Below, piece by piece: positions 1,176 through 29,625 of a DNA stretch of 64,000 nt. The DNA is taken from assembly GCA_963812135.1 (NCBI GenBank), contig CAWETU010000001.1:864001-928000 (forward strand). Reading direction: 5' to 3'. The stretch's first letter is position 1; each line of letters opens with the position of its first letter. Under the pieces are notes generated by a model. It saw only the letters and a program-made list of their open reading frames with translations, was not told where the DNA came from and did not search any database. The position numbers and the translations under genes are program-made. The stretch comes from Vulcanimicrobiota bacterium. Lineage in GTDB: Bacteria > Vulcanimicrobiota > Vulcanimicrobiia > Eremiobacterales > Eremiobacteraceae.

Positions 1176-1184
1176 TCAAGTCCC

Positions 1185-3173: not shown

Positions 3174-3204
3174 AGTCAATGAAGATACGACGCCCGATAA
3201 CAAG

Positions 3205-3256: not shown

Positions 3257-3271
3257 ATTCTTATGCGATGA

Positions 3272-4674: not shown

Positions 4675-4677
4675 CCT

Positions 4678-4863: not shown

Positions 4864-4864
4864 G

Positions 4865-5335
4865 TCAGATGTAGTCGATATATGTGGAGTTCCCAATGGC
4901 GTCGCTAATGACGATGTGACCCCGGATTCCATAGCCGGTGAACTTGTGAACTAAGAACGGGAAAGATGGTCCGTTTCCGGATGATGGGTTGACGGTCAAG
5001 CGGCTGGAGCCTCCCGATATCGTAATCGGGCCGGTGTATCCGATTTCGCTCACGGTGTACAGGGTGGACCAGCCGGCATAGAGACCGCTGCTCATGATGC
5101 GACACGGGCAGACAGCTCCAGTTGGCGAGACCACCTGCAACGGATTGGTTGTTGGCGGCGGCGTTGGGGTCGGTGGCGGCGGAGTCGGAGTCGAGAGTGG
5201 GGTCGCGGTAGCAACCATGGTCGGCGGTGGCGGTGGCGGCGGCGGTTGAAACGCCGATACGCCGCCGCAAGCTGCTAGAATGCTTGCAGCTAGCAGGCCG
5301 CTCGTCAGGTACTTTAAGGACACATGGATATTCAT
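4865..5335 (-). CDS. proline-rich lipoprotein
   Basis: Lipobox LAACGG, poly-Pro/Thr linker, beta-rich C-terminus. Confidence 0.7.
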   Translation of the reverse strand: MNIHVSLKYLTSGLLAASILAACGGVSAFQPPPPPPPPTMVATATPLSTPTPPPPTPTPPPTTNPLQVVSPTGAVCPCRIMSSGLYAGWSTLYTVSEIGYTGPITISGGSSRLTVNPSSGNGPSFPFLVHKFTGYGIRGHIVISDAIGNSTYIDYI

Positions 5336-5468
5336 AATGCTTCCCTTCTTGGTCAGGCGCCGTCTCAAGGATGGCGCCGTGTATAGAAGAAGCATAAAGA
5401 GCCGTCGTGTCTCCATCATAAAACTAGGGGCTAAATTTCAATTGCTGTCCCGAGGAGCGCGTTTCTAG

Positions 5469-8400
5469 GTGGAAAACCCAGCTGCGATGATGGCCCAATC
5501 GCGCTTGTGCGTATTGGGGAAGTTCTCGCTCGAGCTTGGGAGGGTGACGGCGCCCAGCCTCGCCACGCAAAAAGCGCGCGCACTCCTTGCCTATCTAATC
5601 GCCCACCGGCAGTCTGACGCGGGACGCGAGCGCCTGCTCGAGGTCCTATGGCCCGAAATCGAACCCGATCGGGCCAAGGAGGGGCTGCGGACGGCGCTTT
5701 GGTCGATCCGAAGGGCCGTACGAGACGCTGGCTTCGAGCCAGACCAATACCTGACTGCGAATCGCGCGATTGTGCGATGGACGGCGCAAACCTGGTTAGA
5801 CGCGGAAGCCTTCGTCGAATTCGCACACAGCGATGATGCCAACCGGCTTGAGGCCGCCCTCGCGCTGTACAAAGGAGACTTTCTCGAAGGCGATTACGAG
5901 GAATGGACAGTCGCCGAACGTACTCGACTCGGAAATGAGTACGAATCACTTCTTTCGCGCCTCGTGCGAAGCACGCACAACCACGAGGCTGCCCAACAGC
6001 TGCTGACTCGCAATCCGTACGATGAACCTTCCTATCTCTTGCTTATCGAAGGCGAGCTGGCGGCAGGCCGAGTCGTGGCAGCTGCAGCGCTGGGCGAGCG
6101 CTGCGAACGCGCTTTGGCGGAGGTCGGTGCGCAGCCGTCCTCAGACTTGCGGAGATTGGTCACGGGCATCTCGTCGCGGCAGATCCAGTCAGTCCCCAAG
6201 CTCGTCTTGCCCTTCGTCGGGCGCGACACGGAACTTGCGAAGGTTCGCGATCATCTGCTTGATGATGCGCCGGGTGGCCATGCACTGGTGACAAGCGGAG
6301 CACCGGGCATCGGCAAGTCGTCATTTTTGGCTCACGCCGCCGACATCGCACAAAGCTTGGCGCGCACTGTTGTGAAGGTCCGCTGTTTCGACGCCGACGC
6401 GCGTCCTTTTGGACCGTTCGAGGAGTTGTACGCTGACCTATACGACGAGCCTCTCGCTCCGCCGCAAGCGGGCGACCAACACGACGCTGCGCAGCGCCTA
6501 GCAGTATCTTTGGTCAGCGGGTTACGGCCAGGCGCGGTTATCTCGATCGATGACGCGCACATGCTGGCGCCGGATGCGCGTCGCGTGCTTTCCGCGCTCG
6601 CCGGGCACTCCGACGCGCAAGGGCACATGCTCTTGGTAGCTACTCGCACGGAGGGGCGACCGGACCTCCTTGCGGCGCTGGCGGGATGTCAGGTCGAGGA
6701 TATCGTGCTCGCGCCGCTGCGTCTCGATGACCTGCAAGCCGCGATCGCCTCCGTCGTGGCTGATAATCCTGAGATCGTCGCGCGGACCGTCTTCGAGCGC
6801 AGCGGCGGGCATCCGCTGTTTGCCGCCACGCTGCTCGACTCGCTGGCGCAATCGGGCACGCTTAGGGCGGATCATGGTACGTGGCGGTTGGTCGGAGCGC
6901 TCGACGACCAGGTTCCGCTGCCCAAGACGCTCACGACGTACATCCGGGCTCGGCTGCATGCTCGCGGCGAAACGGCATCGATGGTAGCCGCTGCGCTCTC
7001 GCTTGAGCCCCACGCGACCGCAGACGAGATCACGGCGGCGACGCAGCTCTCGGAACAGCAAGTCTTCGACGCGATCGATGACCTGCTGGCTCTTGGAGTC
7101 TTGATTCAGCCCGTATCGGGACCCAAGTTGGCGTTCGCGCACGATCTCTATCGCGAAGTCGCCGCAGGGATGCTCAATACGGGCAGGCGCACGCGCCTGC
7201 ACCGCGCGTTTGCGCAACGTCTCGCATCCTCCCAGGGCGCGGAATCGTCGCTGCGATGCGCGCGGCATTTGATGCACGCCGGCGACGTCGCGACCGCAGC
7301 CCAAGCATACTATCGCGCGGCGAACGAGGCGCTGGAGTGGGGAGCTTGGATGGAAGCGCGCGATCGATGCATAGCCGGCATCGAAGGGCTTGAGAAACTT
7401 GAACGCAATGCCGAGACAGACACCCTTCTCGCTCGCCTGAAGACGCTCTCCGCGAAGGCGCAAGCGGCTCTCGGAGATTCCTCCTCCGCCATCGCTACCG
7501 CGAGCGAGGCGATCTCGCTCGCGAAACGTTCAGGAGAGTCGCGTACCGCCATCGAGGCGGCACTAACCCGCCAACGCGCTTTGCTAGATGACTACGACGC
7601 GGCCGCAGCCCTTGCGAGTGCCCGTGAGGTGGCGTCGATGGCGCGAGAGGCTCGCGAGATCAAGCGCTGGCCGTCGCGCTCGCCGACGAATCTCGGTCGC
7701 AGCGGCTTCTTGCGTGTGAGGCGGAGGCCATTCGAGCCGCTACTGAAGCGGAAGCCACCGCGAACGCTACGGGCGACTGGGATCTATCGTGTTACGCGCT
7801 CGAGCAGCTCATACTCGCGGACGTCACGTGGTGGAGATTTGCGGATGGAGTGGATGCGGCCGGACGTGCATCCCAGGCAGCAACACGCGCGAGTCGGCTC
7901 GCGCAAGCCGCCGTTCAGTGCGCTCTCGCGACGTTGAATTTGGCGCTCGAACACCGTGGCGAGGCATCGGTGCACGTCGAGGCCGCAGCGGCTTTGCTTC
8001 GAGAAGACCTCGGCTCCCCTCGACGGAGCGTGGCATACGCGCCCTTTAGCCCGGCAAGGCTGAGACTTGCGATCGCTGCGATCGCGACCCAGCTGGCATT
8101 GGAGGATGGTGATGCGGAGCGTGCTCTATCACTGGCGAGTGATCTCGGACGCATAAACTCTCCCCGCTCGCGTGAACTGGCACACCTGTTGTGCGCTGAT
8201 GCACATATCAAGCTCGGCGTTTTCGATGCAGAGGACAACGATGCCTCAACGTCCCCGGCTCAGAATACAAGACCGTTCGTCCAGGACGTGTACAGTGGCA
8301 GCCGCTCTCCCGCGTTGACGGGCGCTGTCATGGCTGCGGGCCGAGGATCGCAGGACGGATCAGCGCTGCTGATGAGCCTCCTCGACATCGTGGAGGGCGC

Positions 8401-8584
8401 CGCACGTCGAGCACCGCTCGATGCGGATCGAGCTTTCGCGCAGATCGCGCTCGCCGCGCAAGGCTGCGGCGCACAACACGTCGCTTCAAGGGCCGCACTG
8501 CGGCGGGACGACTATCGCGCGATGCGCGCTGCGGCAAGGTCCGGCCTGCGGACGCCGGAGCGCATCGAGTCGAGGAGCAGGTAA
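5469..8584 (+). pseudogene. SARP/BTAD + AAA ATPase (STAND-like) + TPR regulator, frameshifted near 7655
   Basis: KARALLAYL...LWPE...LRTALW, ALALYKGDFLEG, LPFVGRDTEL, GAPGIGKS, IDDAH, SGGHPLFA, FAHDLYRE. The helical repeat region continues in another frame from about 7658 to the stop at 8584. Confidence 0.8.
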
Positions 8585-10287
8585 GCAGTCGCAGCGCGCT
8601 GGGCAAGCGTGACGAGTCCTTTGACCTCATCAGGCGATGGTGGGGTGCAGTTCTCACGGCTTCCATAGAACGTCACTCCCACGATGCGCCCGCCAGACTG
8701 CATGGGAACCGCAACGATCGGCTGCTGCGGGGGTGACGCATCCGTACGCGACCAGCCGATAGCCGCCAGGTCGATCGACGGCGGGCGCTTGTTGAGTGAC
8801 GCCATTAGCGGATCATCGGGCAGAAGATGCCACAGCGCGTCTGGCGGCCAGCCGATGCCGATCTCGCGCAGCAGTCCGCCGTCGGCGACTCGCCGGAAGA
8901 AGACCGCAGAGGCAAGGCCAAGCGCGTTGGCAGCTCCGGATGTGACGATCCCCTCGATGGCGCTCGGCGACTCAGCGACATCAATGGCGTCGAGAGCGGC
9001 TTTGAGACGGACCCGAGCGTCGTATCGCCGCCGGAACAGGAAGCGATCAACGAGGTCGATCGCGCGCCCCTGGATGGCACGCACCCAGAAGCCCAACCCG
9101 AGTGCCACGGCGATGTCAATGGCGAGCTCGATGCGCGAGCCGTGGAAACGCGAAGTAAAAATCGCATCGATAGCTGCAAAAATGCCGAGCGCTGTAAGAA
9201 TGAGGAGCGCGTAGACCAGCGTGCGGCTAAGAACGAATTCGATATCGAACAGTCGGTGACGTATGATCGCATAACCGAGCGCGAACGGAAGCAATATCTG
9301 AAACAGTTCCCACGGGTAGGTGCCGAGGATATCGAACATCGGCCACGCCGGTTGCCCCAATAGACGGTTGGAATCGAGGGCTAACCGATACGCACCCGGC
9401 AGGACAAAGGCGGCGATCACCCACGCGATACGTGTGCGCTCGGAGGTGGGAGATTCGAAGTAACAGCGGAGCAGTGCCCCAAGCCCGATCAGTTGCCCGA
9501 AAATGCTTACGGCGTTTTGAGACCTCTCGAGCATATCCGAACCGACGAGGAAGAAAACTCCCGCGATATCCCAGATGAGGCCAAGCACGATGCTGGCCGC
9601 GAGCCCACCTAAGACGAAGGGGAGCGCGCGCCGGCCCCAGCCCGTCAAACGATCGTTAGGGAACAACAATGCGAAGAGCGCGAACGCGAACGGCGCGGCA
9701 AACATTACCAGGTCGTGCGGTATCATCATGGGCAGGCTGATGAGCGGTGGCAGCCAGGCGTACATATCCGAGACCATGGAGCCACCGGTTCCGATGGAGC
9801 CGCCGGCTATCGTGCCTATGTAGAACATCCCAGTCATCCAACCGGGCCGCAGCCATACCAGTGCCACGCCCAGCGCGATGCGTAACAAGTAGGTGAACAG
9901 CCAGAAGACGCTCTGCGGAACAGTGGAAGGGCTCATCGGCAAAGGTCGCGCCGCGAGATCGACGATTCTTTCCTTTCCGCCGTGCACTATATGCAGCTTT
10001 ATCGTTTGGCCCGGTCGCGCGCCCCCGAGGTGTTCGCGCAGGGTTTCATATTGCGTCTCGATTCGGTCACCGACGAGAATTCCAGCATCGTCCGCCGCGG
10101 AGTGCGGAACGATCTCTGTGACAGGATCGTTTCCGACGTTGATGCCGAAATCGTAGCGCGGAATCCAATAGAAGGCGATGTCGGGCGCGGCGAGCGCGAG
10201 CACGTAGATCGTCATGGCGATGACGACGATCTTCCAAATGACAGACTTACGCCGATCCTGTGCGAGCGCGGCGGCTACCATAGCCAC
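8512..10287 (-). CDS. PDZ + multi-TM + GAF-like membrane sensor with no output domain
   Basis: PDZ (PHSAADDAGILVGDRI...PGQTIKL), YAIIRHRLFDIEFVLSRTLVY, GAF-like VAVPMQSGGRIVG. Confidence 0.75.
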   Translation of the reverse strand: MAMVAAALAQDRRKSVIWKIVVIAMTIYVLALAAPDIAFYWIPRYDFGINVGNDPVTEIVPHSAADDAGILVGDRIETQYETLREHLGGARPGQTIKLHIVHGGKERIVDLAARPLPMSPSTVPQSVFWLFTYLLRIALGVALVWLRPGWMTGMFYIGTIAGGSIGTGGSMVSDMYAWLPPLISLPMMIPHDLVMFAAPFAFALFALLFPNDRLTGWGRRALPFVLGGLAASIVLGLIWDIAGVFFLVGSDMLERSQNAVSIFGQLIGLGALLRCYFESPTSERTRIAWVIAAFVLPGAYRLALDSNRLLGQPAWPMFDILGTYPWELFQILLPFALGYAIIRHRLFDIEFVLSRTLVYALLILTALGIFAAIDAIFTSRFHGSRIELAIDIAVALGLGFWVRAIQGRAIDLVDRFLFRRRYDARVRLKAALDAIDVAESPSAIEGIVTSGAANALGLASAVFFRRVADGGLLREIGIGWPPDALWHLLPDDPLMASLNKRPPSIDLAAIGWSRTDASPPQQPIVAVPMQSGGRIVGVTFYGSRENCTPPSPDEVKGLVTLAQRAATAYLLLDSMRSGVRRPDLAAARIAR

Positions 10288-10442
10288 GTGGGCTTCGAGA
10301 AATACACGAATGGAAACTCTAGGTCTAAGCTATTCGAAAGTGTCCCGACAAACACTATTGAGCGCTCTAGCAAGCTCTGAATCATCCAGGCTTCGGATAC
10401 CTGCTCACGAACCATAATAGACCTTTCCGGTTTGGGGCGGAC

Positions 10443-13400
10443 ATGCGTACATCGATCGGCCAGTGCATCATCGTGGCTCTGATATGCGTATGCTCAGTTT
10501 GGATTCCATCGCCGCCTGCCGCCGCCGGCACGACCGGTGCCATTCAGGGTTACGTTACCGACGAATCAGGCCTGGGCATCGCCGGCGTCAGGGTCGCCTT
10601 GGCATCGGCGTCGGGCGATTTCACCTCGACATCCGCGTCTGCGGGCTATTATGCTTTCAATGGACTGCCTCTTGACACGTACACGGTCACCTTTTCCAAG
10701 GATGGCTATGTAACGCAGTCAATTCGCGGCAACACGACGGTACAGGACCAAGCAATCCGCATAAGCGCCCGACTGAAGGCCGGCCTCAAGACGCTCGCTC
10801 GTATCAGCGTGCGCAGCTCGGAATCGCTCGTCCAGCCCACTGTCACTGCGGACACCTACGTTATCAGCGAGCAACGGTTGTCAGATATCCTGGGGATGCC
10901 GCAGGCGCTCAACAACCCTCCGGGTCTTTCGGGTCCCGGCACTAATCCCCAGGTATTCAACGCGCTACCCGGCGTCATGCCAGATGCCGGCGGCTTTCCG
11001 ACGATCCGCGGCGACAGCGGAGTGGGATACCAGTTCGAGGGGGTCGATTGGGGGGGAGGCTTATTGACGTTTTCTGGCGTTCATAGCGTGCAGCTCACGA
11101 CGGGAGGCTATGACGTCAGCAACGGTAACGCGACCGCCGGCGTGATAAACGAGGTGATCAAGAGGGGGACGTATCCAGGTCACGGCCAGGTCACATTTTC
11201 GATCGCCAACCCACAGTACGGTCATAACATCTCATTCGAGTACGGCGACGCGACCGAGAACAACCGGTTTAGCTATTACCTGTCCTTTTCCGGTATGCGA
11301 GACGCCGTGAACTATGGCGATCCAAGGCCGTTTCCGCTTATGGTCGGTTTCACCACTTTCAACTCACTGAACGACAACGTCATCAACCTCCTTTATCATT
11401 TCGGTAACGGGAACAGCAACGAGCTTCAATTCGAGACGCGCATCAGTACAATCACCGTCCCCTTTAACTATTTGGCTCTGCCCGCGCTTGCGCCGTACGC
11501 GTCAAACAACGGCGTCGTAGAGGCGTCGTCCGACCCGTTTGGCTTCGGACAGCCGTCGACGTTCCAAAGCAACTACATCACATTCATGCCCGGGCAAGCC
11601 GCGTATCAGCAGAACACCAACCAGGCCGACACCGAAACGGACAACGCGGCCGTCGGCAAGCTCGGTTTCAAACGGCAGCTGACAGCGTCGAGTTTTGTAG
11701 AGCTGCGCATCTTCGAGAATTATGACACTAGCGTCGTTTGGGCTGCCTACAATCAAGGGGCATTCAGCGATTTTTACCGCGACCGGCATGCGAAAGCGTT
11801 CGGAGAAGCGTTCGACTACACGAACCAGCTCAGCAGCAAGCACGAGCTCAGCTTCGGCGGCACCGGCACGTACGAGACCATCTCTGAGGTACAGGGGGGT
11901 GCGAGCTCCGACCCGTTCCTCGAACCCCTCGAGGGCCTGGGTTGCCCAAAGCTCGCCGGCTACTTGGCGGCGAACACGGGCCTAACTGGGTTCCCCCAAG
12001 TGTCTACGTCGGGCGTAGGCGGGTGCTATATCGGCCCCTACAACAATGCGATCAACAACGCTTTCGTTGCGCGAGGGTTCCCGAATCCCGGGTTGCCGAC
12101 CGATCCGGGCAACGCGCCTTTGAACATCTACGTGACATCACGCGGCGTAGTCGCCGATCCGGTCCACCGCTGGGACCTGTATGTCAAGGATCGCTGGCAA
12201 CCCAACGAACGGCTCACCGTCACGCTCGGCCTGCGTTGGGACAAAGAGGTGGTTGAGATGCCAGCCAACGCCGGCGAGCTGGACTCGACATACTATTTCG
12301 ACGACGGCGGCAATCTCGTCACGCTTCCGGGGCAGCCGATCGCCAAGGAGGTGACGCACCCGCAGCAGATCAGTCCGCGGGTCGCCGCGAGCTACGCGCT
12401 AACCGTGCGCGACGCGTTGCGCTTTTCGTATGGGACGAATATCCAGTTCGTCAATATCGCGCAACTCGAAAACGCGTATCAGGTGCCCGCATCGCTGCAG
12501 AGCTGCAACATCGCCAATGGATGTTTCATCCCCCTGCCGGGGTTTGGCACGACCAACCACGTCACCAACCTCTACCAACAAGTCTTGCTGGATCTTAACA
12601 CCAATGCAACCTTGCCGTACCAGCCAGTGCTCCCACAAACCGCCATCAACCTCGACTTCTCCTACGGGCATGCTTTTGGCCGAGGCGTCGAGATGCGCTT
12701 GACCCCTTACTATCGCAAAGGCTCAAACTATGCGGTCGGGATCTCGACGCCATTGCTCGTGTTGCCGAGCGGAAGGCCAATCTATAGCCCTGGTCGCCTC
12801 GTGAACGGGGGCATCAATAAGAGCACCGGCATCGAGTTCGCGCTGCAGCGCAATGCAGCATACGGATTTTCGGGACTGGTCGATGCCACATACAACAACA
12901 CCATCGCGAACGACGCGGACTGGATCGCCGGCAGCGCGGCGTTCGTCTCGGGCCGTTTTTTCCATGTGTCAGACGTGGCGCCGTTCAATGGCGCGCTGAA
13001 CCTAGTTTACAACACACATAAGGGATTGCACGTCTCTACGACGATCTCGTTCGATTCCGGTTTGCGCTACGGCGTGGGCAAGAAAACGTTTATCTTCGAC
13101 CCCAACGGCAAACCGGTTCAGGTGCTCAACACTGACTTAGCAACCTGGGTCGGGTTCGCTTATTACGTGACTGATCCGACGAACCCAGGCACGGTCTACG
13201 CGCCGAACATCGTCGCGTCGCGGGGTACCCCTGAAGGCGATGATCCCTTCACTCTGTACGGGACGCCGACCACCATCGTCAATCTGTCCATTTCACAGTC
13301 ATTGGGTGCGGGACCAAGTAATTTTCAGGTCGGCGTCGGAGCGGAGAACCTCTTCGCCAACTACGGGTCTGCCGATACTTCGGTAAATACATCATATGGG

Positions 13401-13574
13401 TTCTCCGGTTATGGCAACGGTGGGCTGCCCTCGGGCGTGAACAGTAGCGCTTGTGGCCCCGGCCAAACGCTCGGCTGCCAGCCGTTCCAATATAACTTTG
13501 GCGCTGATCCTTACGAAAGAAGTCCATTCGGGCCGCCGCGCATGTTCACGTTTTTCGTCAGCGCGAAATTCTGA
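10443..13574 (+). CDS. TonB-dependent receptor (Oar-like, N-terminal carboxypeptidase regulatory-like domain)
   Basis: Signal peptide, TTGAIQGYVTD, YAFNGLPLDTYTV, LYVKDRWQ...LTVTLGLRWD, terminal Phe. Confidence 0.9.
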   Translation: MRTSIGQCIIVALICVCSVWIPSPPAAAGTTGAIQGYVTDESGLGIAGVRVALASASGDFTSTSASAGYYAFNGLPLDTYTVTFSKDGYVTQSIRGNTTVQDQAIRISARLKAGLKTLARISVRSSESLVQPTVTADTYVISEQRLSDILGMPQALNNPPGLSGPGTNPQVFNALPGVMPDAGGFPTIRGDSGVGYQFEGVDWGGGLLTFSGVHSVQLTTGGYDVSNGNATAGVINEVIKRGTYPGHGQVTFSIANPQYGHNISFEYGDATENNRFSYYLSFSGMRDAVNYGDPRPFPLMVGFTTFNSLNDNVINLLYHFGNGNSNELQFETRISTITVPFNYLALPALAPYASNNGVVEASSDPFGFGQPSTFQSNYITFMPGQAAYQQNTNQADTETDNAAVGKLGFKRQLTASSFVELRIFENYDTSVVWAAYNQGAFSDFYRDRHAKAFGEAFDYTNQLSSKHELSFGGTGTYETISEVQGGASSDPFLEPLEGLGCPKLAGYLAANTGLTGFPQVSTSGVGGCYIGPYNNAINNAFVARGFPNPGLPTDPGNAPLNIYVTSRGVVADPVHRWDLYVKDRWQPNERLTVTLGLRWDKEVVEMPANAGELDSTYYFDDGGNLVTLPGQPIAKEVTHPQQISPRVAASYALTVRDALRFSYGTNIQFVNIAQLENAYQVPASLQSCNIANGCFIPLPGFGTTNHVTNLYQQVLLDLNTNATLPYQPVLPQTAINLDFSYGHAFGRGVEMRLTPYYRKGSNYAVGISTPLLVLPSGRPIYSPGRLVNGGINKSTGIEFALQRNAAYGFSGLVDATYNNTIANDADWIAGSAAFVSGRFFHVSDVAPFNGALNLVYNTHKGLHVSTTISFDSGLRYGVGKKTFIFDPNGKPVQVLNTDLATWVGFAYYVTDPTNPGTVYAPNIVASRGTPEGDDPFTLYGTPTTIVNLSISQSLGAGPSNFQVGVGAENLFANYGSADTSVNTSYGFSGYGNGGLPSGVNSSACGPGQTLGCQPFQYNFGADPYERSPFGPPRMFTFFVSAKF

Positions 13575-13690
13575 GGGCGACTTTCGACTTTCAGTCCTAT
13601 TAAGAAGCAGCCGCCAATTCTGAGACCGTCGGCTACTTCCCATTGGGAGCGATCGTCGTGTGCTCGATGGTCAAGCCCGCCGACATGCGA

Positions 13691-15322
13691 TCAGTTTAGT
13701 CCGACTTGTCCTGACTCTGAGCGGGAGGGCTTGCGCAGCACCAGCTCGACCTCACCGTCATCCGCGATGATCACCTCATCCGCGCCGACGGGCGCGCCGC
13801 GCTTGCGTTGCGCCAGCGTGCACACGACGCCGGCGATGTCGATTGTGCCGCGCGCTCCCTCGCCCATCGCCAGTCCCGTGATGAGCGGCGCGGCTAGCGC
13901 CGCGGCCGAGTACGACGCGCGGATGCGGAAATGTCGCTCCACCTGTTTCGCCGTGTTGGGATCAGCAATGCGCATGACGACAGGCAGGTCGGGGGCGTCG
14001 GTCAGGGCGGTCAGCGCGACCTCCAAGTTCGCGCTATCGCTGTCGGTGACTGCGAGCAGCGCGGCCGCATGCGAAACGCGAGCCAGGTCTTGCGCCGGCT
14101 CGCTCGTCGCGTCGGCGGTCATCACGTGAACGCCCTGCGCGCGCACCTCAGCGGCCAGCGGCTCGTTCGGCGTGCGCTCGATGACGACGACCCGATGGCC
14201 GGCGCTGACGAGGTACTGTGTCGCGCGCGCGCCGACGTTGCCGAAGCCGGCCACCACGATATGTCCGTGGCCGGCCGCCGGGTGCCGCCCTTGCGCGAAT
14301 TCGAGCGAGCGCCGCGTGATGGTGGCGGTCAGATAGGCGAGCAGCGTGCCGGTGATCGCGATGCCGCCGAACATCACGAGTATGCCGACGGCTTTTGAGG
14401 CGTCGTCAGCGCGTAGCAGCGTGATGTCGCCAAAACCGGTCGTCGTCGCCGTGGTCATGACGAAATAGAACGCGTCGAACAGCCGCAGCCCCAACTTGTA
14501 GTGGAAAAAGATCGTGGCGAACGCGAGCAGCCCGAACAGCGACGCGAACAGCGCTGCCAACACGGGGTCGAAACGCCGGTGCACCAGGCGCTGCCACAGG
14601 GTTTCTCGCGGCCGGCCCGGTTCGCGCCGGGGTGTCGTCTGCCGATCCGGCAACCCCTTGGGAGCGTGTTCGAGCAGACATGCGACGGTCACGACGGCGC
14701 CCGCGCGAATCGACGTGGATTCGTCCGGGAACGGGTGCTGATCAATCGCGAGCACATGCCAGCGGCGCTGCGCTTCAAGCTCTCCGACGGCACGATCGAC
14801 GCAATCAAACGCTTCGCTCGGTGCGCGGCAAAACGTCAATAGGTGTTCGGAATAGCGCGGAAATTCGATCGCTTGATAGACGGTCGGATTCAAGCATGAG
14901 GCGGCGAAGGTGGCGGCCGAGAAATTCTCCGGACTAACGGACTCGCTGTCTTTGAGGTTGCTCACGATCTTGCGACCGAGCCAGCGGTTGAACTGGCGCA
15001 GCACGACGCGGATCTGCGGATTGAGATCGCGCGCGGCGAGCACGATACGCAGATTGAGCTGATCGTCCAACGTCATCGCGACGATCGTGGCCGCGCGCTG
15101 CACGCCGGCGCGGGTCAGGATAGCGTCGCGACGGGCATCGCCGGTGACGTGCGAGATGAGGGCGTGATCGAGCTCGACTTCTTGCAGGCGGCTTTCCCAC
15201 ACGGCGCACACGCGCTTTCCCGCACGCGCAAGCCCGCGGCAGACTTCGGCCCCGAGCTCGTCGTGACCGAGCACGACGATGACGTCGACGGTCTCACCCG
15301 CTCGGTGGGTCGTTTCGGTCAC
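13691..15322 (-). CDS. potassium channel with two TrkA-N/RCK domains
   Basis: Pore motif TTTGFGD; Rossmann motifs VLGHDELG and VAGFGNVG. Confidence 0.85.
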   Translation of the reverse strand: MTETTHRAGETVDVIVVLGHDELGAEVCRGLARAGKRVCAVWESRLQEVELDHALISHVTGDARRDAILTRAGVQRAATIVAMTLDDQLNLRIVLAARDLNPQIRVVLRQFNRWLGRKIVSNLKDSESVSPENFSAATFAASCLNPTVYQAIEFPRYSEHLLTFCRAPSEAFDCVDRAVGELEAQRRWHVLAIDQHPFPDESTSIRAGAVVTVACLLEHAPKGLPDRQTTPRREPGRPRETLWQRLVHRRFDPVLAALFASLFGLLAFATIFFHYKLGLRLFDAFYFVMTTATTTGFGDITLLRADDASKAVGILVMFGGIAITGTLLAYLTATITRRSLEFAQGRHPAAGHGHIVVAGFGNVGARATQYLVSAGHRVVVIERTPNEPLAAEVRAQGVHVMTADATSEPAQDLARVSHAAALLAVTDSDSANLEVALTALTDAPDLPVVMRIADPNTAKQVERHFRIRASYSAAALAAPLITGLAMGEGARGTIDIAGVVCTLAQRKRGAPVGADEVIIADDGEVELVLRKPSRSESGQVGLN

Positions 15323-15457
15323 ACTTTGACCTCCGGCAGGGCGGGCTTCGTCGCCAGCCAGAGGCGTCCCGTTGCCCTGGATTCCCGGGGCCAGATGCCG
15401 ATGATTGTAGAGGGGACTACCAACCCGTGAGCATTAGGCATGGCCGGGAGAGTTTGA

Positions 15458-15907
15458 GTGCCGAGATCAAGGCGCTGGACCACGGAAATCGGTCCACAAG
15501 AGTCGACGTCGCAGTTCAGCAGGGGCACGACGAAATGGGAGCCCACGCTCGCATTTCCTAAGAGCGGCGCCCACCGCGCGACGATCGGCGACCGGCTTTT
15601 CGCGGAAGTCCACATCGACGTCAAAGTACAACAAGAGCGCGGCGCCAGCCATGACGGCTTCGACGGCACGACGACGCGCTCGGTTCAGCCGTTCATCGAA
15701 AGCATCGTCTACGATTATCTCGGCGTCGAGGCCGAGCGGACGTTGGTAGTGCGGGAAACCTCACGCCAGGGCGAGCGCATCGATCGCGCCACGCTCTACG
15801 TGCGGCTCACCGCAGATGGGCCTACCAAGATCCGGTTCGCCTCGGGCGTCGTCAGCGTGATCGTGGACGACGAGCAGGTCGCGATCGTGCGCTGGCTCGG
15901 CCCGTAG
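15458..15907 (+). CDS. hypothetical protein
   Basis: 149 aa ORF filling the gap, GGAG upstream. Confidence 0.5.
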   Translation: MPRSRRWTTEIGPQESTSQFSRGTTKWEPTLAFPKSGAHRATIGDRLFAEVHIDVKVQQERGASHDGFDGTTTRSVQPFIESIVYDYLGVEAERTLVVRETSRQGERIDRATLYVRLTADGPTKIRFASGVVSVIVDDEQVAIVRWLGP

Positions 15908-22859: not shown

Positions 22860-24425
22860 CTATTCGGCCGGAGCCGCCGGTGTGTGGCCGCTGAGCGGGG
22901 GCGGCTTGAAGAATGGGATGATGAACATCGTCACGATGAGCGCGATCCCAAGGACCAGCGACGCATCTTGGAAGCCGGCGACGAACGCCTGAGTGTAAAG
23001 GCGGCCGTACAGCGCTGCGATGGCCTGCTGGGAGGCGGTCACCGCGTCGGAGCCGCCTCGCGCGATGAAACCCGCGCTGATGGCCGCAAGCTGCGCTTGA
23101 GTCGCGTGCGAGAACACCGTGAGAGACTCACCGAAACGCTCAAAGTGATACCGTTCGCGGTTGACGAGGAACGTCGCCAAAATCGCGATGCCGAACGAAC
23201 CACCTAACGTACGCGTCAGGTTGAAGAGCGACGAGCCGTCAGCTCGCTCGCGCGGTTTGAGGCTCGTCAGCGAGAGCGCGCCGATCGAGGTGAACATGAG
23301 CGGCAACGACGCGCCGCGGATGATCTGAATCCAGGCCAGCTCCGCGTAGCTCGTGTTCAGATCGACGCGGCTTTGGAGATAGAGCGCGCACGCGAAGACC
23401 AACAACCCGAGTCCGATCAGGATCCGGGCGTCGACGAACGCCGACGCGCGCCCGACGAGCGGGAACATCACGAGACTCACGATCGCGGCCGGCAATAGCA
23501 ACAGGCCGATCTGCAGCGCGGTGTAGTGCAATAAGTTGCCGGTGAACAACGGCACGAGGAAGAGCATGCCGAACAGCGCCGCGCCAAGCATCGCGCCAGC
23601 GAACGAACCGAGGGTGAAGTTGCGGTTCTTGAAGATCCGGACGTTGATGAGCGGATGTTCTTCGGTCAGCTCGACATAAAGGAACGCCACGAACGACATC
23701 AGCGACACGAAGCTCATCCAGAAGATGAACGGCGACTGGAACCAGTCATCCTTTTGGCCCTCTTGCAGCACGAGCTGCAGCGTGCCAAGCCACGTCGCGA
23801 CGAAGATCAGCCCCCAGTAGTCGATCGGCGCCGTCGCGCGACCCGCGGTCAGGTCTCGATTCTCGTGGATGAAGAGTAACGTGAAGAAGATCGACAGCGC
23901 CACGAGCGGCACGTTGACGAAGAAGATCCAGGGCCACGAGAGCGTGTCGGTGAGCCAGCCGCCGAGCGTGGGGCCGATCGCGGGACCCAGGGTAGCACCG
24001 ATGCCGTACAGCGCTGACGCCATCGCGAACTCTTGCGGGGGGAACGCTTCGAGCAAAATGGTGAGCGAGACCGGCAGAATCGCGCCGCCGCCGATGCCCT
24101 GCAAAATGCGGAAGAAGATAAGGGAGTTGAGGCTCCAGGACAGTCCGCATAGCAACGACGCGATCACAAAGACGAACTGGCTCATCACGAAGTAGCGGCG
24201 CAAGCCGAAGATGCTCGACAGCCACCCGGTGGTCGGTATGATGATGACGTTGCTGATCAGATAACCGGTGATGACCCAGTCGATCTCATCCACGCCCGCG
24301 CCGAAGGACGACTGCATGTTCGGGATCGCGACGTTGACGATGCTCGCGTCGAGCACCGCGGTCAAAGCCGCCAGCATGACCGGTATCGAGATCAGCCATT
24401 TGTTGCCGATCAGGCGAGAGGGCAT
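22860..24425 (-). CDS. emrB: DHA2-family MFS efflux permease (EmrB-like)
   Basis: LDASIVNVAIP, WVITGYL, RILQGIGGG, GPAIGPTLGG, WIFFVNVP. Confidence 0.9.
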   Translation of the reverse strand: MPSRLIGNKWLISIPVMLAALTAVLDASIVNVAIPNMQSSFGAGVDEIDWVITGYLISNVIIIPTTGWLSSIFGLRRYFVMSQFVFVIASLLCGLSWSLNSLIFFRILQGIGGGAILPVSLTILLEAFPPQEFAMASALYGIGATLGPAIGPTLGGWLTDTLSWPWIFFVNVPLVALSIFFTLLFIHENRDLTAGRATAPIDYWGLIFVATWLGTLQLVLQEGQKDDWFQSPFIFWMSFVSLMSFVAFLYVELTEEHPLINVRIFKNRNFTLGSFAGAMLGAALFGMLFLVPLFTGNLLHYTALQIGLLLLPAAIVSLVMFPLVGRASAFVDARILIGLGLLVFACALYLQSRVDLNTSYAELAWIQIIRGASLPLMFTSIGALSLTSLKPRERADGSSLFNLTRTLGGSFGIAILATFLVNRERYHFERFGESLTVFSHATQAQLAAISAGFIARGGSDAVTASQQAIAALYGRLYTQAFVAGFQDASLVLGIALIVTMFIIPFFKPPPLSGHTPAAPAE

Positions 24426-24431: not shown

Positions 24432-25658
24432 CTAGTGGTTGCTCGTGTCGATCGTGATTTGCGCGGAGAGGCCCTGTCGCAAGAGATTGTTCGGATCCGA
24501 CTCATGATCGATCTTGATGCGCACGGGCACGCGCTGCACCACCTTGGTGAAATTGCCGGTGGCATTGTCGGGCGGAATCAACGCGAACGTCGATCCGGTC
24601 GCCGGCGCCACGCTCTCGACCGTACCGCGGAACTTCTCGCGCGGGTACGCGTCCACTTTGATGGACACCGGTTGGCCCACGCGCACGTTGGTCAACTGCG
24701 TCTCTTTGAGGTTGGCGGTGATCCAGATGTCCGTCGGATCGACGACCGCCATGAGCGCCTGGCCCGGATTGACGAAGTCGCCGACGTTGACCGAGCGCTT
24801 GCTGACGACGCCGTCGATCGGCGCTCGGATCGTGGCGTACGAGAGCTGCAGCTTCGCCGCATCGAGCGCGGCTTGCGCCGATTTCACTTGCGCCGCGCTG
24901 GTATACGCTTGCGCCTGTTTGATCTGCGTGGTATCGGACTCAGCCTGAGCCTGGATCAGGCCCGCGCTGTTGCCTGCGAGTTGCGCTTCAGCTCGCTGGA
25001 CGCCGGCCTGAGCCTCCTTGACGTTTTGGGCGGCAGAATCGCGCGCAGAGACAGCCGACTGATACGCGCTATACGTCGCGTCGGCTTCGGCTTGGGAGAT
25101 CGCGCCCTGCGCGACCAGCTGGCTCGCGCGCTGCTCGTCTTTGGCCGCCTTGACCAGGTTGGCTTCCGCGGCTTTGAGTTGCGCTTGCGCCGACATCAAC
25201 GCCGCTTGCGCGCTCGTGACGCCGCTTTCGCCTTGCCCGATGCCGGCATTGGCTTGCGCGATCTGCGCGGTCGACAGTTGCGCTTGTTGCGGCACGCCGA
25301 TCACTGCAGCCTTGTACGAAGCGACCGCCTGCGCCAACGTCGCGGCGGCCTGGTCGACCGCGGCTTTTAGGTCGCGGGCGTCGAGCTTGACGAGGATGTC
25401 GCCCTTGTGCACGGTCGAATTGTCGTTGACGAAGATATCGGTGACTTGGCCCTTCACCTTGGGAGCGATCGTCGTGATGTTGCCGTCGACCTGCGCGTCA
25501 TCGGTGGACACGTGGCGCGAAGCATAGATAAGATAAGGAATGCCTATGATGAGGATGAGGGCTGCCACGCCGATGATGATCGGGATGACGACTCGTCGCC
25601 GGCTGGGTTTTTGGTCTGGCGCCTCTGCAACCACGGGCCGTTCTTGTGCTGCAATCAT
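24432..25658 (-). CDS. emrA: HlyD-family efflux adaptor (EmrA-like)
   Basis: STDDAQV, IRAPIDGVV, PPDNATGNFTKVVQRVPVRI. Confidence 0.92.
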   Translation of the reverse strand: MIAAQERPVVAEAPDQKPSRRRVVIPIIIGVAALILIIGIPYLIYASRHVSTDDAQVDGNITTIAPKVKGQVTDIFVNDNSTVHKGDILVKLDARDLKAAVDQAAATLAQAVASYKAAVIGVPQQAQLSTAQIAQANAGIGQGESGVTSAQAALMSAQAQLKAAEANLVKAAKDEQRASQLVAQGAISQAEADATYSAYQSAVSARDSAAQNVKEAQAGVQRAEAQLAGNSAGLIQAQAESDTTQIKQAQAYTSAAQVKSAQAALDAAKLQLSYATIRAPIDGVVSKRSVNVGDFVNPGQALMAVVDPTDIWITANLKETQLTNVRVGQPVSIKVDAYPREKFRGTVESVAPATGSTFALIPPDNATGNFTKVVQRVPVRIKIDHESDPNNLLRQGLSAQITIDTSNH

Positions 25659-25669: not shown

Positions 25670-26227
25670 CTATTCCGTGAAGGGTCCGATCGGCGTGATC
25701 GGTAGTTCGCGAATGTGCTCACGCAAGCTGTCCAGCCAGGCCACGAGTTTTGTCTTCTGCTCGAGAGAAAGACAGCTGCCGATCCGCTTGACGAGCTCTT
25801 GGTGGCGCGGCGAGAACCACGCTATGAACTTCTTACCCTTTTCGGTGAGCTCGGCGAGCATCATCCGGCGATCGTCGGGATGATCGACGCGCCGCACGAG
25901 GCCGTCCTTGACCAGTCCGTCGATGAGGCCGGTGATGTTGGCGCGCGTGACGACCAAGTATTCGCCTATATCCGAGAGCGGCATACGCTTTTCGGGTTGG
26001 GCATCAAGGGTCATCAAGATGTTAATCCGCCCAGGCGTCATCCGCATATCGCCCGCGGAGGCCTCGAGCATGTTGGTGAGTTCGCTGACGGTCCGCTTCA
26101 GGGTAACAATTAGGTTGACGGTATCGAAGTCGCCGTGCGCCTTGGCGCAGTAGCCTCGCAGGCCTGTGCGGAAGAGCGCCATATCGCTTTCCGGGACGCT
26201 GTCGGTTTGGGTTGGTTCGGTCTTCAT
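25670..26227 (-). CDS. MarR-family transcriptional regulator
   Basis: VTRANITGLIDGLVKDGLVRR...DDRR...LTEKG. Confidence 0.9.
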   Translation of the reverse strand: MKTEPTQTDSVPESDMALFRTGLRGYCAKAHGDFDTVNLIVTLKRTVSELTNMLEASAGDMRMTPGRINILMTLDAQPEKRMPLSDIGEYLVVTRANITGLIDGLVKDGLVRRVDHPDDRRMMLAELTEKGKKFIAWFSPRHQELVKRIGSCLSLEQKTKLVAWLDSLREHIRELPITPIGPFTE

Positions 26228-26264
26228 GCCAGCCTTTGTTTAGCTCCTAATGGTTAACAGGCTT

Positions 26265-26293
26265 ATTATATGGTCGGGAGGCAATCGTGTCAA
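26265..26293 (-). promoter_or_regulatory. consensus sigma70 promoter of marR-emrAB
   Basis: Minus strand TTGACA (26293-26288), 17 bp spacer, TATAAT (26270-26265). Confidence 0.85.
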
Positions 26294-26327
26294 GATTCGG
26301 CGGTGACGGGGTAGTACTTATACCCCC

Positions 26328-26355
26328 TTCAAAACGCGGCGTTTTTGGGAACACC
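26328..26355 (-). repeat. 28-bp inter-gene direct repeat copy 1
   Basis: Plus strand TTCAAAACGCGGCGTTTTTGGGAACACC; abuts the stop codon at 26356. Confidence 0.85.
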
Positions 26356-27072
26356 TTAATGGAGAGTGATTGTCACGGTCCTGGTCTCTCGACGATTGTA
26401 TAACGTCACCGTATAGCGATCCCCTTGATAGCCGCTCACGAAGTACTTGTAATCCGGTCCATATTGTTTTCGAGCTTGCGCGACGACCCGCTGGTTGTCC
26501 GGCGCATTCGGGTTGAGGAGCACAGCAATCGAGCCGAGAGCCACTGCAGCGATGACGCCGCCGACAACGATACCTAATCGCGGGTTTCTCCAAAATCGCT
26601 TTGCCGGCCCTAATTGGCTGGTGACGAACGCATCGACCGCAGGTGTCGTCAACCTGTTAAAGACCCAGAACGAGGTCGGGATGAGGAGCAGACCTATGAG
26701 GTAGTCGACCGGCTCCCTCTGTATTTGAAGTGCGAGAAAATCAAACGGCATTACGAAAGGCAGCATAAGACATACTATGGTCGAGCCACCGGCAGAAACA
26801 CCAGCGGTATAAGCGACGCTTCGAACGGGCCAAGCAGCGCCGCGATATAAAAAAACTCCAGCTCCGGCGGCCAGTAACTCGACCCCGAATCCTATTCCTT
26901 GGTGTGCTTGGATGGCGCGTATTAGGTTGAGGCCATCTTGAATGATCGCGCCTATACCATAGATTATCAGGACCAAGCCAACCGAGCGAAGTGTTTTCTC
27001 GGCCTCTGCGTTGCCAGCTTCCCAGGCGTCTAGCTCAGGTAGCTCCACGGACATCGAGCGGCCGTTAACCAT
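26356..27072 (-). CDS. hypothetical membrane protein (putative cassette gene)
   Basis: About 5 TM segments, AT-richer codons, flanked by repeats. Confidence 0.7.
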   Translation of the reverse strand: MVNGRSMSVELPELDAWEAGNAEAEKTLRSVGLVLIIYGIGAIIQDGLNLIRAIQAHQGIGFGVELLAAGAGVFLYRGAAWPVRSVAYTAGVSAGGSTIVCLMLPFVMPFDFLALQIQREPVDYLIGLLLIPTSFWVFNRLTTPAVDAFVTSQLGPAKRFWRNPRLGIVVGGVIAAVALGSIAVLLNPNAPDNQRVVAQARKQYGPDYKYFVSGYQGDRYTVTLYNRRETRTVTITLH

Positions 27073-27110
27073 ATATCGACACCCACCCTGTGGGCGAGAC
27101 AGTCAAGCCG

Positions 27111-27138
27111 TCCAAAATGCGGCACTCTTGGGAACACC
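27111..27138 (-). repeat. 28-bp inter-gene direct repeat copy 2
   Basis: Plus strand TCCAAAATGCGGCACTCTTGGGAACACC. Confidence 0.85.
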
Positions 27139-27156
27139 CCGACCCACGAATCGGCC

Positions 27157-27933
27157 TTACTCGCCCTTTCGAAGATCTCGTTCGATATCGTCGACCCGCG
27201 CGTCTAGCTGCCGTTTTCGTCTTGCCTTGATGATGTCGGCGAGGCTCGGATCGAAGTCTTCGATCGGACCTGTGTGGGTGTACGTTTCGAGCTCCAGCCC
27301 CATTCGATTGCATATTGACTGCACAATGGTGGCCATATCCGGAGGATCGGTGTCAATAAACCATCGTTCCTCTTCATTAGGGAAGCCAATTTGCGGCGAA
27401 GCAAAAGGCTTGCCCAAGTATAGTTCAAGCTCGTGAAAATCGAACTCCGGACAAACGAATCGTCGCAGTTGCGGCAAGGTTTCTGGATGGCATATAAATG
27501 AGCTGCCCCTTTGTCGCGTCCTCGCTCCTAACCGTGAATTTAGGTTATGAAAACCGAACGGCAGTTGAAAGGGGAACCAAGAATCCGGATTCACGACCGC
27601 TTCGCCGCGCTCACCGGCGATATGCTGAGGTGATATGACCACTGACCCCGCGAAATGGCCATTAGCGCTAGCGAGCGCGTACGCGAGCTGTGCGGCGAAC
27701 TCGTAGCGGATTTCCTCAAAAGCATAGCCGCCCGGGAGTGGCTCGCTCGCGCCGGTCATTCCTTGCATCACCCAATTCGAGTCTCTAGTCTTAGTCGCGT
27801 TGCCCCAGTGACTGCCGCGCGACGGGTGTGGTAAGCATAAGTCGAAATACCAGAGCAGGCCTGGGGCCCGCAGCGCGAATATTTTCGCCCGTGCGTGGGG
27901 TGCGTGGTCCTCTAGATTGACATCTGAACCCAT
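27157..27933 (-). CDS. hypothetical protein (putative cassette gene)
   Basis: 258 aa ORF lying between repeat copies 3 and 2; start uncertain. Confidence 0.55.
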   Translation of the reverse strand: MGSDVNLEDHAPHARAKIFALRAPGLLWYFDLCLPHPSRGSHWGNATKTRDSNWVMQGMTGASEPLPGGYAFEEIRYEFAAQLAYALASANGHFAGSVVISPQHIAGERGEAVVNPDSWFPFQLPFGFHNLNSRLGARTRQRGSSFICHPETLPQLRRFVCPEFDFHELELYLGKPFASPQIGFPNEEERWFIDTDPPDMATIVQSICNRMGLELETYTHTGPIEDFDPSLADIIKARRKRQLDARVDDIERDLRKGE

Positions 27934-27939
27934 CGCTTA

Positions 27940-27967
27940 TCCTAGATCCGGCATTCTTGGGAACACC
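27940..27967 (-). repeat. 28-bp inter-gene direct repeat copy 3
   Basis: Plus strand TCCTAGATCCGGCATTCTTGGGAACACC. Confidence 0.85.
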
Positions 27968-27976
27968 TTACGCCGA

Positions 27977-28591
27977 CTAATGGTATCGTGCGGCGAGTTT
28001 CTTAGCAAGCTCGATCGCGCCTTGCTTTGGGCTGCCACCTTTCCAGTATTCTGCGTCGACTAGAATCTCGTACGGTCCTGAGATCGCTCGGACCATTTCA
28101 CTTGATATCTCGACGAAGCGCTGCCCACGATACACGTAGGCCTTCGGGAAACCCAAGGTCTTGGTGTAGAAGGCGTAATCCCCGATGGCTCTCTCGGGGA
28201 CGCATTCTCCAATATGTGCGTAGCCAGGGTGAGTGCACTGGTCAACTGGTAGATGGATTCTTCTTGGGAAATCAGCGCTGCGTAGCACTGAGACTATAAG
28301 GAGCTCGAATGGCTTCGGCGCTTCTTTGCCTGAAATCACAATCGCGCCTAGGTCGATCCCAAAAGAAATGGCGCAATAGATTGAGCCATTGCGCTCCTTC
28401 CAATCATCCCCGGCGCGTTTGAGTACTGGATTCAGTCGTGAGAGATCGGCGTCCGTCACCAGCGGGCAGTGTGTCGGCGACTCGAACGCGGTCGCTGTCA
28501 GAGATGGTGACGGCGTAGGTCTGGATCCTGCGCTGCAGCCGCTTACGAGAACGGCCAGGCAGGCGCAAGCTACGACGGCCATGAGCCTCAT
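27977..28591 (-). CDS. lipoprotein (putative cassette gene)
   Basis: Signal with lipobox VSGCSA; ends AIELAKKLAARYH. Confidence 0.7.
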   Translation of the reverse strand: MRLMAVVACACLAVLVSGCSAGSRPTPSPSLTATAFESPTHCPLVTDADLSRLNPVLKRAGDDWKERNGSIYCAISFGIDLGAIVISGKEAPKPFELLIVSVLRSADFPRRIHLPVDQCTHPGYAHIGECVPERAIGDYAFYTKTLGFPKAYVYRGQRFVEISSEMVRAISGPYEILVDAEYWKGGSPKQGAIELAKKLAARYH

Positions 28592-28699
28592 GAGTATTGG
28601 TGCATCGTTATTAGATCGGAGTGCACAGCTCGGGAGTTCCTTTCAACGATTGCGCTACCTCTTCGACGCGTTTCGTGGCGAGAAAAGGCCGGCGACCGG

Positions 28700-29060
28700 A
28701 GGCACCGATCGCCGGCGAATCATCGCGGTCAGCGCCGTTGTGGCGCTCGGCACGGCGTTGCTCGGAATCGCTGCTCAATTGTGGTCGCTGAGCGCAGTGC
28801 TGTTCGCGATGGGCGTCGCTGCCGGGCTTCTCAACGTGCACATCGTGGCATGGTTCCAGCAGCGCGTCGAGCGCGACATGCTCGGTCGCGCGATGAGCGT
28901 GATCATGTTCGCGGCGGTGGGTTTGCAGCCCATCTCACTGGCGATCGCCGGCTTCGCCGTGACCTGGAGCGTCACTGGCATGTTCGCCGGCGCTGCCGCA
29001 CTGATGCTGCTGTTCACCACACTCGCTGCGTTTCAGGAACCGGTCCGGGAGATCCAATGA
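28700..29060 (+). pseudogene. C-terminal fragment of an MFS transporter
   Basis: Only the last ~4 TMs remain, with QQRVERDMLGRAMS; no N-terminal half. Confidence 0.7.
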
Positions 29061-29079: not shown

Positions 29080-29625
29080 TCATTCGGTTTCGGGCTGTCG
29101 ACGTACGCCTGTCTCCGGCGCGACGATCTCGCTTAGCCTATAGGTTGAGAACGCTTTGGGCTTAATGCCCCTAGCGATAAGCGCGTCGATGAGGCGGCCA
29201 AGTTCCACCGTGTGCCAATGTCTCCGCTCCTCCCACCATTGTTGCGCGCCGGGATAGGCTATGAGGTCGCTCATCGTCCGCTCGACCCTGCCCCACGATG
29301 AGTGCCCGAGTACGCCGTCGCAATGGGAGAAATACATTCCTTCGAAATAGTTTACAAGACGGTTGAAGAACGCGCTGAACCTTAGTTTCGAGACCGGATC
29401 AAGATCAGCGAAAGATTGTAGGCCGCGAAGAAAAATTGAGCTGAGCTCTGCGCTATCGTGCAGACCTCTTGTCAGATCGCCCCATTGGACATTGAGAGCG
29501 TGAACCGCCGACTGGCGCCGTTCTGTGGTTTGCGCTCGAATCTGGATGGCTAGATATATGAGGGAAGGGATTCCGACAAACACCGCCGCCAATTGCCCGA
29601 GCGCTGCGAGCATTTCCCAGCTCAT
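29080..29625 (-). CDS. single-TM hypothetical protein, distant DUF4760-like
   Basis: MSWEMLAALGQL...LAIQIR; FEGMYF...GVL; PGAQQWW. Confidence 0.6.
   Translation of the reverse strand: MSWEMLAALGQLAAVFVGIPSLIYLAIQIRAQTTERRQSAVHALNVQWGDLTRGLHDSAELSSIFLRGLQSFADLDPVSKLRFSAFFNRLVNYFEGMYFSHCDGVLGHSSWGRVERTMSDLIAYPGAQQWWEERRHWHTVELGRLIDALIARGIKPKAFSTYRLSEIVAPETGVRRQPETE

Follow-up and report, generated by a model that had tools for sequence, protein, structure and literature searches.

A direct array of putative transposon ends beside a marR promoter in Eremiobacteraceae and its possible relation to casposons

The window studied here is a 64,000-nucleotide stretch of a genome of the family Eremiobacteraceae (Vulcanimicrobiota; contig CAWETU010000001.1, positions 864,001 to 928,000), and the subject of the analysis is a direct array of a 28-bp repeat located upstream of a marR-HlyD-MFS efflux operon. 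All parts of the array lie on the minus strand. Three open reading frames (ORFs), g3 (27977-28591, encoding a 204-aa lipoprotein-like protein), g2 (27157-27933, a 258-aa protein whose family was not recognized), and g1 (26356-27072, a 238-aa membrane protein), are followed at a distance of 9, 18, and 0 bp by the 28-mers of the repeat copies W3 (27940-27967), W2 (27111-27138), and W1 (26328-26355), respectively. The copies are spaced 783 and 829 bp apart, and their pairwise identities are 23/28, 24/28, and 21/28 by hand count. The repeat positions, spacings, identities, and distances had been given by a first-pass annotation of the window, and all of them were reproduced. Casposons are self-synthesizing transposons that encode a Cas1 casposase and a family-B DNA polymerase (PolB). 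Our leading interpretation, held with moderate confidence, is that the repeat is the inner block of the terminal inverted repeat (TIR) of target-specific transposons, that these transposons are Cas1-less casposon derivatives mobilized in trans, and that the window contains a stack of their right ends.

The repeat is well above the chance level in the window. The pattern GGTGTTCCCAARARNGCCG has three exact matches there (26337-26355, 27120-27138, and 27949-27967, all on the minus strand) vs. 0.02 expected by shuffling, and none of 100 shuffles reached three. The first-pass annotation had reported no further intergenic copy in the window; the pattern finds three in the window and likewise three in the genome. 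In all 2,793,984 bases of the genome (six contigs, 98.4% complete), no other match exists at zero or one mismatch, and a single unrelated match with two mismatches is located on contig C5, the reversed-pattern control giving two. A profile of the 28-mer scores above 14 bits only at the three window copies.

Alignment of 22 copies of the motif, W1 among them (alignment A3), reveals two conserved blocks: block 1, TGTTCCCAAAAnnGCCGCAT, and, about 17 variable bases beyond it, block 2, (A)CTACCCC. The 28-mer is the conserved inner block of a TIR of about 47 bp and not a free-standing recombination site. Among the window copies, only W1, the one adjoining marR, is of full length. This right end, of the kind here called A-type, occupies 26308-26355 on the minus strand (47-48 nt), matches positions 1-47 of a 47-position profile with 43.3 bits, and, when aligned with the 21 other copies, consists of block 1 (26328-26355), the variable stretch, and block 2 (CTACCCC) at the outer terminus. 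W2 (27106-27138, minus strand) is a cut-back end that retains block 1 and 5 nt more, lacks block 2, and matches profile positions 1-33 with 31.7 bits (33.7 bits on the 28-mer profile). W3 (27940-27967, minus strand), also cut back and the most diverged of the three, retains block 1 only (profile positions 1-22; 27.0 bits on the 28-mer profile), and its 3' part, AGGA, lies 6 nt ahead of the ATG codon of g2.

The full copies observed at other loci are organized as ends of mobile elements. The metagenome loci considered here and below come from among the matches listed, of which 80 were fetched in full; most of these are chance matches. In metagenome locus L155, two full copies (6517-6563 and 2943-2989) are inverted, with the outer block facing outward, and are flanked by a perfect 15-bp direct repeat. 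An element of about 870 bp in L132, with one 125-aa gene, is flanked by a perfect 14-bp repeat. A perfect 14-bp repeat also flanks the element of genome G025, which has an A-type end on one side and, on the other side, a diverged second end, the B-type repeat GGGGTATAG..GCGGnAAAAyGGACAA..TGACGCC. Flanking repeats are nearly perfect for an element with two B-type ends in G028 (12/13) and for an element with one B-type and one A-type end in G011 (13/14), and in L099 two B-type ends surround one gene. These loci show that full copies of the motif are inverted ends of elements with 13-15-bp target-site duplications, that a B-type end can partner an A-type end in one element, and that elements down to the size of one gene exist. 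Since the duplicated sequence varies between loci, it behaves as a duplicated target and not as a fixed attachment core. According to the first-pass annotation, similarity to the end of a known insertion sequence (IS) or miniature inverted-repeat transposable element (MITE) would count against a gene-capture system. In kind, the motif is such an end, with TIRs and 13-15-bp duplications, although the element is not a catalogued IS.

The phylogenetic distribution of the ends is narrow. True A-type copies are present in 8 of 32 genomes of the family, namely the window's genome (G000), G005, G006, G007, G011, G025, G028, and G029, and are missing from the remaining 24; carriers have one to four copies each. 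The 29 genomes from other families among the first 60 relatives contain no true copy, two matches being DnaJ-coding sequence. B-type ends were found in 5/31 family genomes and in 0/269 other genomes searched. Judging by these searches, the family of ends appears to be restricted to one family of Candidatus Eremiobacterota. Pattern matches in G015 and G008 were rejected as not being true copies. A scan of genome contigs with a 20-mer pattern yielded 61 loci, approximately the chance number by our estimate; three belong to the family of ends, and the others are unrelated (e.g., DnaJ-coding). Some twelve recurrent metagenome matches, translated by eye, are seemingly coding sequence and were judged to be a coincidence forced by the pattern. 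Separately, a contig of a Thermoflexus metagenome-assembled genome, from an unrelated phylum, has two exact 20-mer matches 144 bp apart (L077, 3001-3164).

A single chromosomal address recurs among these ends. In W1, G005, G006, L155, and L132, the terminus lies 14-16 nt from the -35 hexamer, TTGAC(A/T), of the marR-HlyD-MFS promoter, and in G001 a lone B-type end occupies the same position 14-16 nt upstream of the -35 hexamer. In the window, the marR promoter (26265-26293, minus strand) consists of TTGACA, 17 nt, and TATAAT, agreeing with the consensus at 12/12 positions, and a 14-nt spacer (26294-26307, minus strand) separates the element terminus from the -35 box, in the place where relatives hold the duplicated target. 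The promoter region is conserved in G005, G006, and G001. The marR promoter is probably the landmark next to the insertion target. In L155 and L132, the marR promoters are identical and the spacers are unrelated. Ends facing each other across one spacer of 12-15 bp (end-spacer-end junctions) are observed in L132, G029, L171, G028, and L099, showing that new elements insert beside resident ones.

Gene order in related genomes changes at the same point. In G005 and G006, which belong to the same genus, the marR, HlyD, and MFS genes, a gene with a metallo-beta-lactamase fold, and the genes onward are found in conserved order. Homology on the marR side stops exactly at the motif, and the genes ahead of the motif differ in G000, G005, and G006. 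The assignment of the site to mobile DNA in the first-pass annotation is supported by a synteny break exactly at the site; relatives (G005 and G006) have the site directly upstream of marR with other genes ahead of it.

The cargo near the ends is diverse and includes membrane proteins, lipoproteins, regulators, dehydrogenases, AbiE toxin-antitoxin pairs, and an Mrr-type nuclease. AbiEi/AbiEii pairs, an Mrr-type restriction nuclease, and Schlafen/AlbA_2, DUF4262, and DUF4760 proteins are found in the cargo of L100, L132, L165, and L155. The variable block ahead of marR in G005 (L017, G005:C2:1-7800), which is incomplete as the contig begins inside it, contains an IS3-type transposase, an FRG-domain gene, a SUKH/SMI1-domain gene, a homologue of g3, and a truncated polymerase gene. 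In L019, L020, L099, and L171, a gene for a LuxR-HTH/NB-ARC/TPR regulator (about 700-850 aa) has an A-type end about 55-60 bp past its stop codon; in L171, two such genes converge on the end-spacer-end junction.

Direct arrays, that is, co-oriented copies with a small gene between them, are present at seven loci. Besides the window array, these are the arrays of G005 (spacing 534 bp), G011 (413 bp), L098 (585 and 602 bp), L118 (about 773 bp), L132 (360 bp), and L155 (751 bp). Further arrays with different genes between the sites, which the first-pass annotation had named as support, exist. Block 2 is absent from all nine internal copies and present in all 21 terminal or paired copies. The arrays are tightly packed, with 0-24 nt from a stop codon to the site and 6-60 nt from an internal copy to the next start codon. 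L132 and L155 have in common a 101/102-aa gene together with the following site, homology beginning at the start codon. Decayed end-spacer-end junctions are found in G028, L099, and G011.

In the casposon-derivative interpretation, the window array would be a stack of right ends left by successive insertions at the marR-promoter target. The intact end beside the promoter would be W1, and W2 and W3 would be older ends. The latter would have lost the outer block, the spacer, and the left end of the neighbor, plausibly via deletion of an unstable palindromic end-spacer-end junction of about 108 bp, and each stacked end would retain the last cargo gene of its element. The cargo would then comprise g1, between W2 and W1, and g2, between W3 and W2, with g3 ahead of the oldest end. 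As n inserts should give n+1 sites and g3 has no site on its upstream side, this gene need not be a captured unit. In the window's genome, the array would be an immobile fossil, read through with, or ahead of, the efflux operon.

The relation to casposons is suggested by several lines of evidence. Remnants of polB occur in four motif loci. In G005, the remnant is a 5'-truncated 728-aa ORF with weak matches to phage polymerases and 33-40% identity to the polymerases (about 1000-1230 aa) of casposons from the same class, and in G011, L155, and L100, only the C-terminal part of the polymerase is present. The polB family is found in 63/301 genomes of the class, and in all seven loci fetched, a Cas1 homologue lies 3-6 kb from a full-length polB gene (two were recognized by Pfam/NCBIfam, and five by tblastn to those two). 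One of the class casposons, in G128 (L236, G128:C1:714000-733999; 711-15812), is intact. It is 15.1 kb long, encodes Cas1 and PolB, and has 164-nt TIRs at 96% identity; the flanking duplication of 15-16 bp falls at the 3' end of a gene that we read as secA. In L244 and L246, too, the casposon lies next to that gene. The G128 TIR aligns in register with the B-type and A-type ends at the terminus, GGGrTAG.A, and at CAAAACGGAC / TTCAAAACG. In addition, AACGTCCGGTG sub-repeats are common to the ends of the Cas1+PolB element of G005 and the B-type elements, and may be a candidate binding site common to related elements. The sub-repeat was seen several times just inside B-type ends (L234, 4966-5090 and 19263-19286; L019, 8718-8750 and 11190-11665; L099, 4117-4290). 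The TIRs of the Cas1+PolB elements of G005 and G023 were considered as possible A-type or B-type ends and rejected, being of another type.

The published properties of casposons are compatible with this relation. Casposons are reported to have 14-bp duplications, tandem copies sharing one duplicated target, and solo-TIRs (PMC4779613), and engineered mini-casposons are mobile with Cas1 provided in trans (PMC10359463). When a casposon moves, it can take its copy of the target along to the new site, and a circular intermediate has been proposed (PMC10359463); such a carried target copy would explain the unrelated spacers beside the identical promoters of L155 and L132. As the motif elements have no cas1, they can be at most non-autonomous casposon derivatives, which would be moved in trans by a casposase, the enzyme we infer here. 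Within the portions of the literature searched, there is no report linking casposons with Eremiobacter* or casposons with the term "MITE", and no description of natural non-autonomous casposons.

Several observations weigh against this interpretation. No cas1 gene was detected in the elements with these ends at any of the seven motif loci by tblastn with three Cas1 proteins of the lineage. Only one of ten genomes with A-type or B-type ends has Cas1 by Pfam, and in this genome, G005, it belongs to a casposon with other ends that is situated on a separate contig. Even so, the three perfect target duplications suggest recent movement. The resemblance to the G128 TIR concerns one casposon and about 20 aligned positions. 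The window itself shows neither a left end nor a duplicated target nor a remnant of polB: no inverted A-type or B-type end, even a degenerate one, was found in the window or its genome, and the search of the window for another instance of the 14-nt spacer gave 14 matches at up to three mismatches vs. 13.9 expected, that is, chance. Neither Cas1 nor a serine recombinase nor an rve-type or Y1 transposase is present in the window's genome, and the array is therefore probably a fossil, most likely immobile. Finally, the deletion model poorly explains why most internal sites stop near position 28 and why a start codon follows 6-60 nt on, with the site end serving as a ribosome-binding site. In another scenario, which we consider quite improbable, the direct arrays would not result from decay: a casposase-type integrase would recognize block 1 of the resident end (28-40 nt) as its target and would duplicate it with each gene-sized insert beside a "leader" composed of the outer block and the marR promoter.

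Transposons with the same TIRs and target duplications could also have been moved by an unrecognized non-Cas1 transposase of an unsampled full-length element, the polB remnants being either cargo or there by coincidence, through a hot spot used in common. The absence of Cas1 from 7/7 motif loci and from 9/10 genomes with these ends is in line with this possibility, as are the perfect duplication in G025, a genome without Cas1, and the fact that no autonomous element was found, with A-type ends in 8/32 and B-type ends in 5/31 family genomes, all at low copy number. On the other hand, casposons are favored by duplications of 13-15 bp, by remnants of polB, and by the resemblance of the TIR to that of a Cas1+PolB casposon; G025 is only 83% complete; and no transposase of another kind was seen in or beside the loci scanned, with the sole exception of the IS3 copy in G005. 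We regard a non-Cas1 enzyme as less likely than a casposase. An integron-like system is improbable. In such a system, block 1 would be the core site, and circular single-gene cassettes would be inserted at the full site by a trans-acting site-specific recombinase. It would account for direct arrays of unrelated single genes at seven loci, for their tight packing (a site 0-24 nt past the stop codon and a start codon 6-60 nt past the site), for the restriction of 9/9 internal sites to block 1, for the 101/102-aa gene shared with its site by L132 and L155 from the start codon on, and for contig X2, where g1 and its site have another upstream neighbor. However, the loci described above establish the motif as a transposon end flanked by target duplications. 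The first-pass annotation had already stated that attC ends are lacking, and indeed no GTTRRRY/RYYYAAC pair is present in the 28-nt or 47-nt site; RNAalifold finds 0 conserved pairs over 22 copies. Its statement that no recombinase is encoded nearby also stands: the only tyrosine recombinase of the genome is 637 kb away and Xer-like (best matches XerC/XerD/XerA), scoring 128.6 bits with the integron-integrase model vs. a cut-off of 265, and the genome has no serine recombinase.

Two further readings treat the motif as something other than the property of a mobile element or as a target of the Xer system. There is very little to recommend a regulatory or RNA element, be it a transcription-factor site before marR, g1, and g2 or a terminator or 3'-untranslated-region structure. 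Each window copy does also have a start codon, that of marR, g1, or g2, 7-100 nt downstream of it, and W1 is just upstream of a perfect sigma-70 promoter. Yet there is no Rfam match at E up to 1, a terminator scan found none at any copy, no pair is conserved over the 22 copies, the family genomes with the motif (8/32) have only one to four copies each, and the copies face either way, some lying between convergent genes and some forming inverted ends with target duplications. The least credible reading is that of a dif-like Xer site, with the genes as small Xer-integrated elements comparable to integrative mobile elements exploiting Xer (IMEX) or to the pdif modules of Acinetobacter plasmids. 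The length of 28 bp, the single copy per genome in most relatives, and the one Xer-like recombinase of the genome fit a dif-like site; against it, the two halves of the 28-mer do not form an inverted repeat, 24/32 family genomes lack the motif, and the array is at 0.89 Mb, with the terminus at about 1.50-1.54 Mb by gene-orientation bias. On contig C1 of the genome, this bias turns at 0.28-0.30 Mb (dnaA is at 0.307 Mb) and at 1.50-1.54 Mb, the site of the sole Xer-like recombinase; the GC skew of the contig is flat and uninformative. Repetitive extragenic palindromic sequences and their paired forms (REP/REPIN) with a REP-associated tyrosine transposase (RAYT) were also considered and rejected, as the genome has three copies only, no Y1_Tnp match, and no conserved hairpin. 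Returning to the casposon-derivative interpretation, the single-gene capture system served in trans that was proposed in the first-pass annotation is retained in part: the DNA is mobile and variable, and would be served in trans, whereas the site is not a free-standing capture site but the end of a TIR element.

The genes of the array differ from their surroundings, as had been noted earlier. GC content is 0.51-0.59 over 26200-28600 vs. 0.62-0.67 in the adjoining efflux operon, and g1, g2, and g3 have no Pfam family above the curated cut-off and no NCBIfam family. Among 300 other genomes of the class, homologues of g1 (30-31% identity) were found in two, and weak homologues of g2 also in two; no A-type or B-type end lies within about 1.5 kb of these distant homologues. 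One 77%-identical relative of g2 was found in a search of 5.8 billion protein clusters, and no cluster of the protein atlas scores at least 0.9 with g2; g3 scores 0.94 with atlas lipoprotein clusters. The homologue of g3 in G005 is 63% identical and is located about 5 kb from the G005 site, in the opposite orientation and without a site of its own, DNA similarity being limited to the ORF. Contig X2, from another study, has a 92%-identical g1 with the site and a different upstream neighbor, the divergence beginning exactly at the inner edge of W2. Among public runs, all of them in the form of contigs, X1 contains the stretch with no difference and may be the source sample, and X3 and X4 yield only short and dissimilar pieces.

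On the downstream side, the efflux operon starts with the gene for the MarR-family regulator (25670-26227, minus strand; Pfam MarR, E 2.5e-12), followed by the HlyD gene (24432-25658; HlyD_D23, E 5.7e-24) and the MFS gene (22860-24425; MFS_1, E 1.7e-52). On the other side, a 5'-truncated remnant of an MFS transporter gene (28611-29060, plus strand) abuts the start of g3. Its MFS_1 match (E 1e-5, residues 108-217 of ORF 28389-29060) falls under the Pfam curated cut-off. Lacking its N-terminal part and lying at the far edge of the variable block, the remnant resembles a scar left by a deletion or an insertion. Further on, a 181-aa gene (29080-29625) shows a likeness to DUF4760-like cargo, by eye only.

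If the casposon link is correct, casposon derivatives without Cas1 would exist in nature and would bring individual ordinary genes to one address on the chromosome, in a phylum without a casposon report in the part of the literature searched. Casposon-type machinery would then be able to deliver genes and build islands, casposon-type ends would survive as direct repeat arrays, and the end-spacer-end junctions expected from a circular intermediate would be found in nature. Each of these three points would be relevant to the proposal that CRISPR arrays originated from casposon ends. If, instead, block 1 is duplicated with each insert, the result would be a natural repeat-insert-repeat array derived from a casposon end, in which genes rather than spacers are stored. 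Such an array would be a living analogue of the proposed step from a casposon solo-TIR to a CRISPR array. If the enzyme is a different one, the elements would form a transposon family not yet classified, distinguished by a target at the edge of a promoter and by an unusual duplication of 13-15 bp.

The system described here combines characteristics of several known ones. With casposons, it shares TIRs, a 13-15-bp duplication (14-15 bp in the best-studied casposon families), a strong preference for one target next to a landmark, tandem insertions sharing one target, degraded copies and lone ends, polB remnants in some elements, and a terminus resembling the TIR of an intact casposon from the same class. 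In contrast to casposons, the elements with these ends have no cas1, include natural one-gene elements of 0.9-1.3 kb with ordinary cargo, and have two diverged end types; their target is the upstream edge of a promoter and not a tRNA gene or the end of a protein-coding gene, and they form direct arrays of cut-back ends with one gene each. Integron cassette arrays are similar in having a promoterless single gene per unit, a conserved site after the gene, co-orientation, unrelated orphan genes, and strain-variable content. They differ in their attC structure with GTTRRRY/RYYYAAC ends and in the integrase IntI, neither of which is seen here, where the site is a transposon end, and also in polarity: the complete site here is at the 3' end of the array, whereas attI is on the 5' side. 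MITEs, other non-autonomous TIR elements, and Tn7-like pile-ups resemble the present elements in transposase-less ends, target duplications, mobilization in trans, and the repeated use of one site, which yields a small island; the 13-15-bp duplication, the ends of 42-47 bp, the cargo genes, and the one to four copies per genome set the present elements apart.

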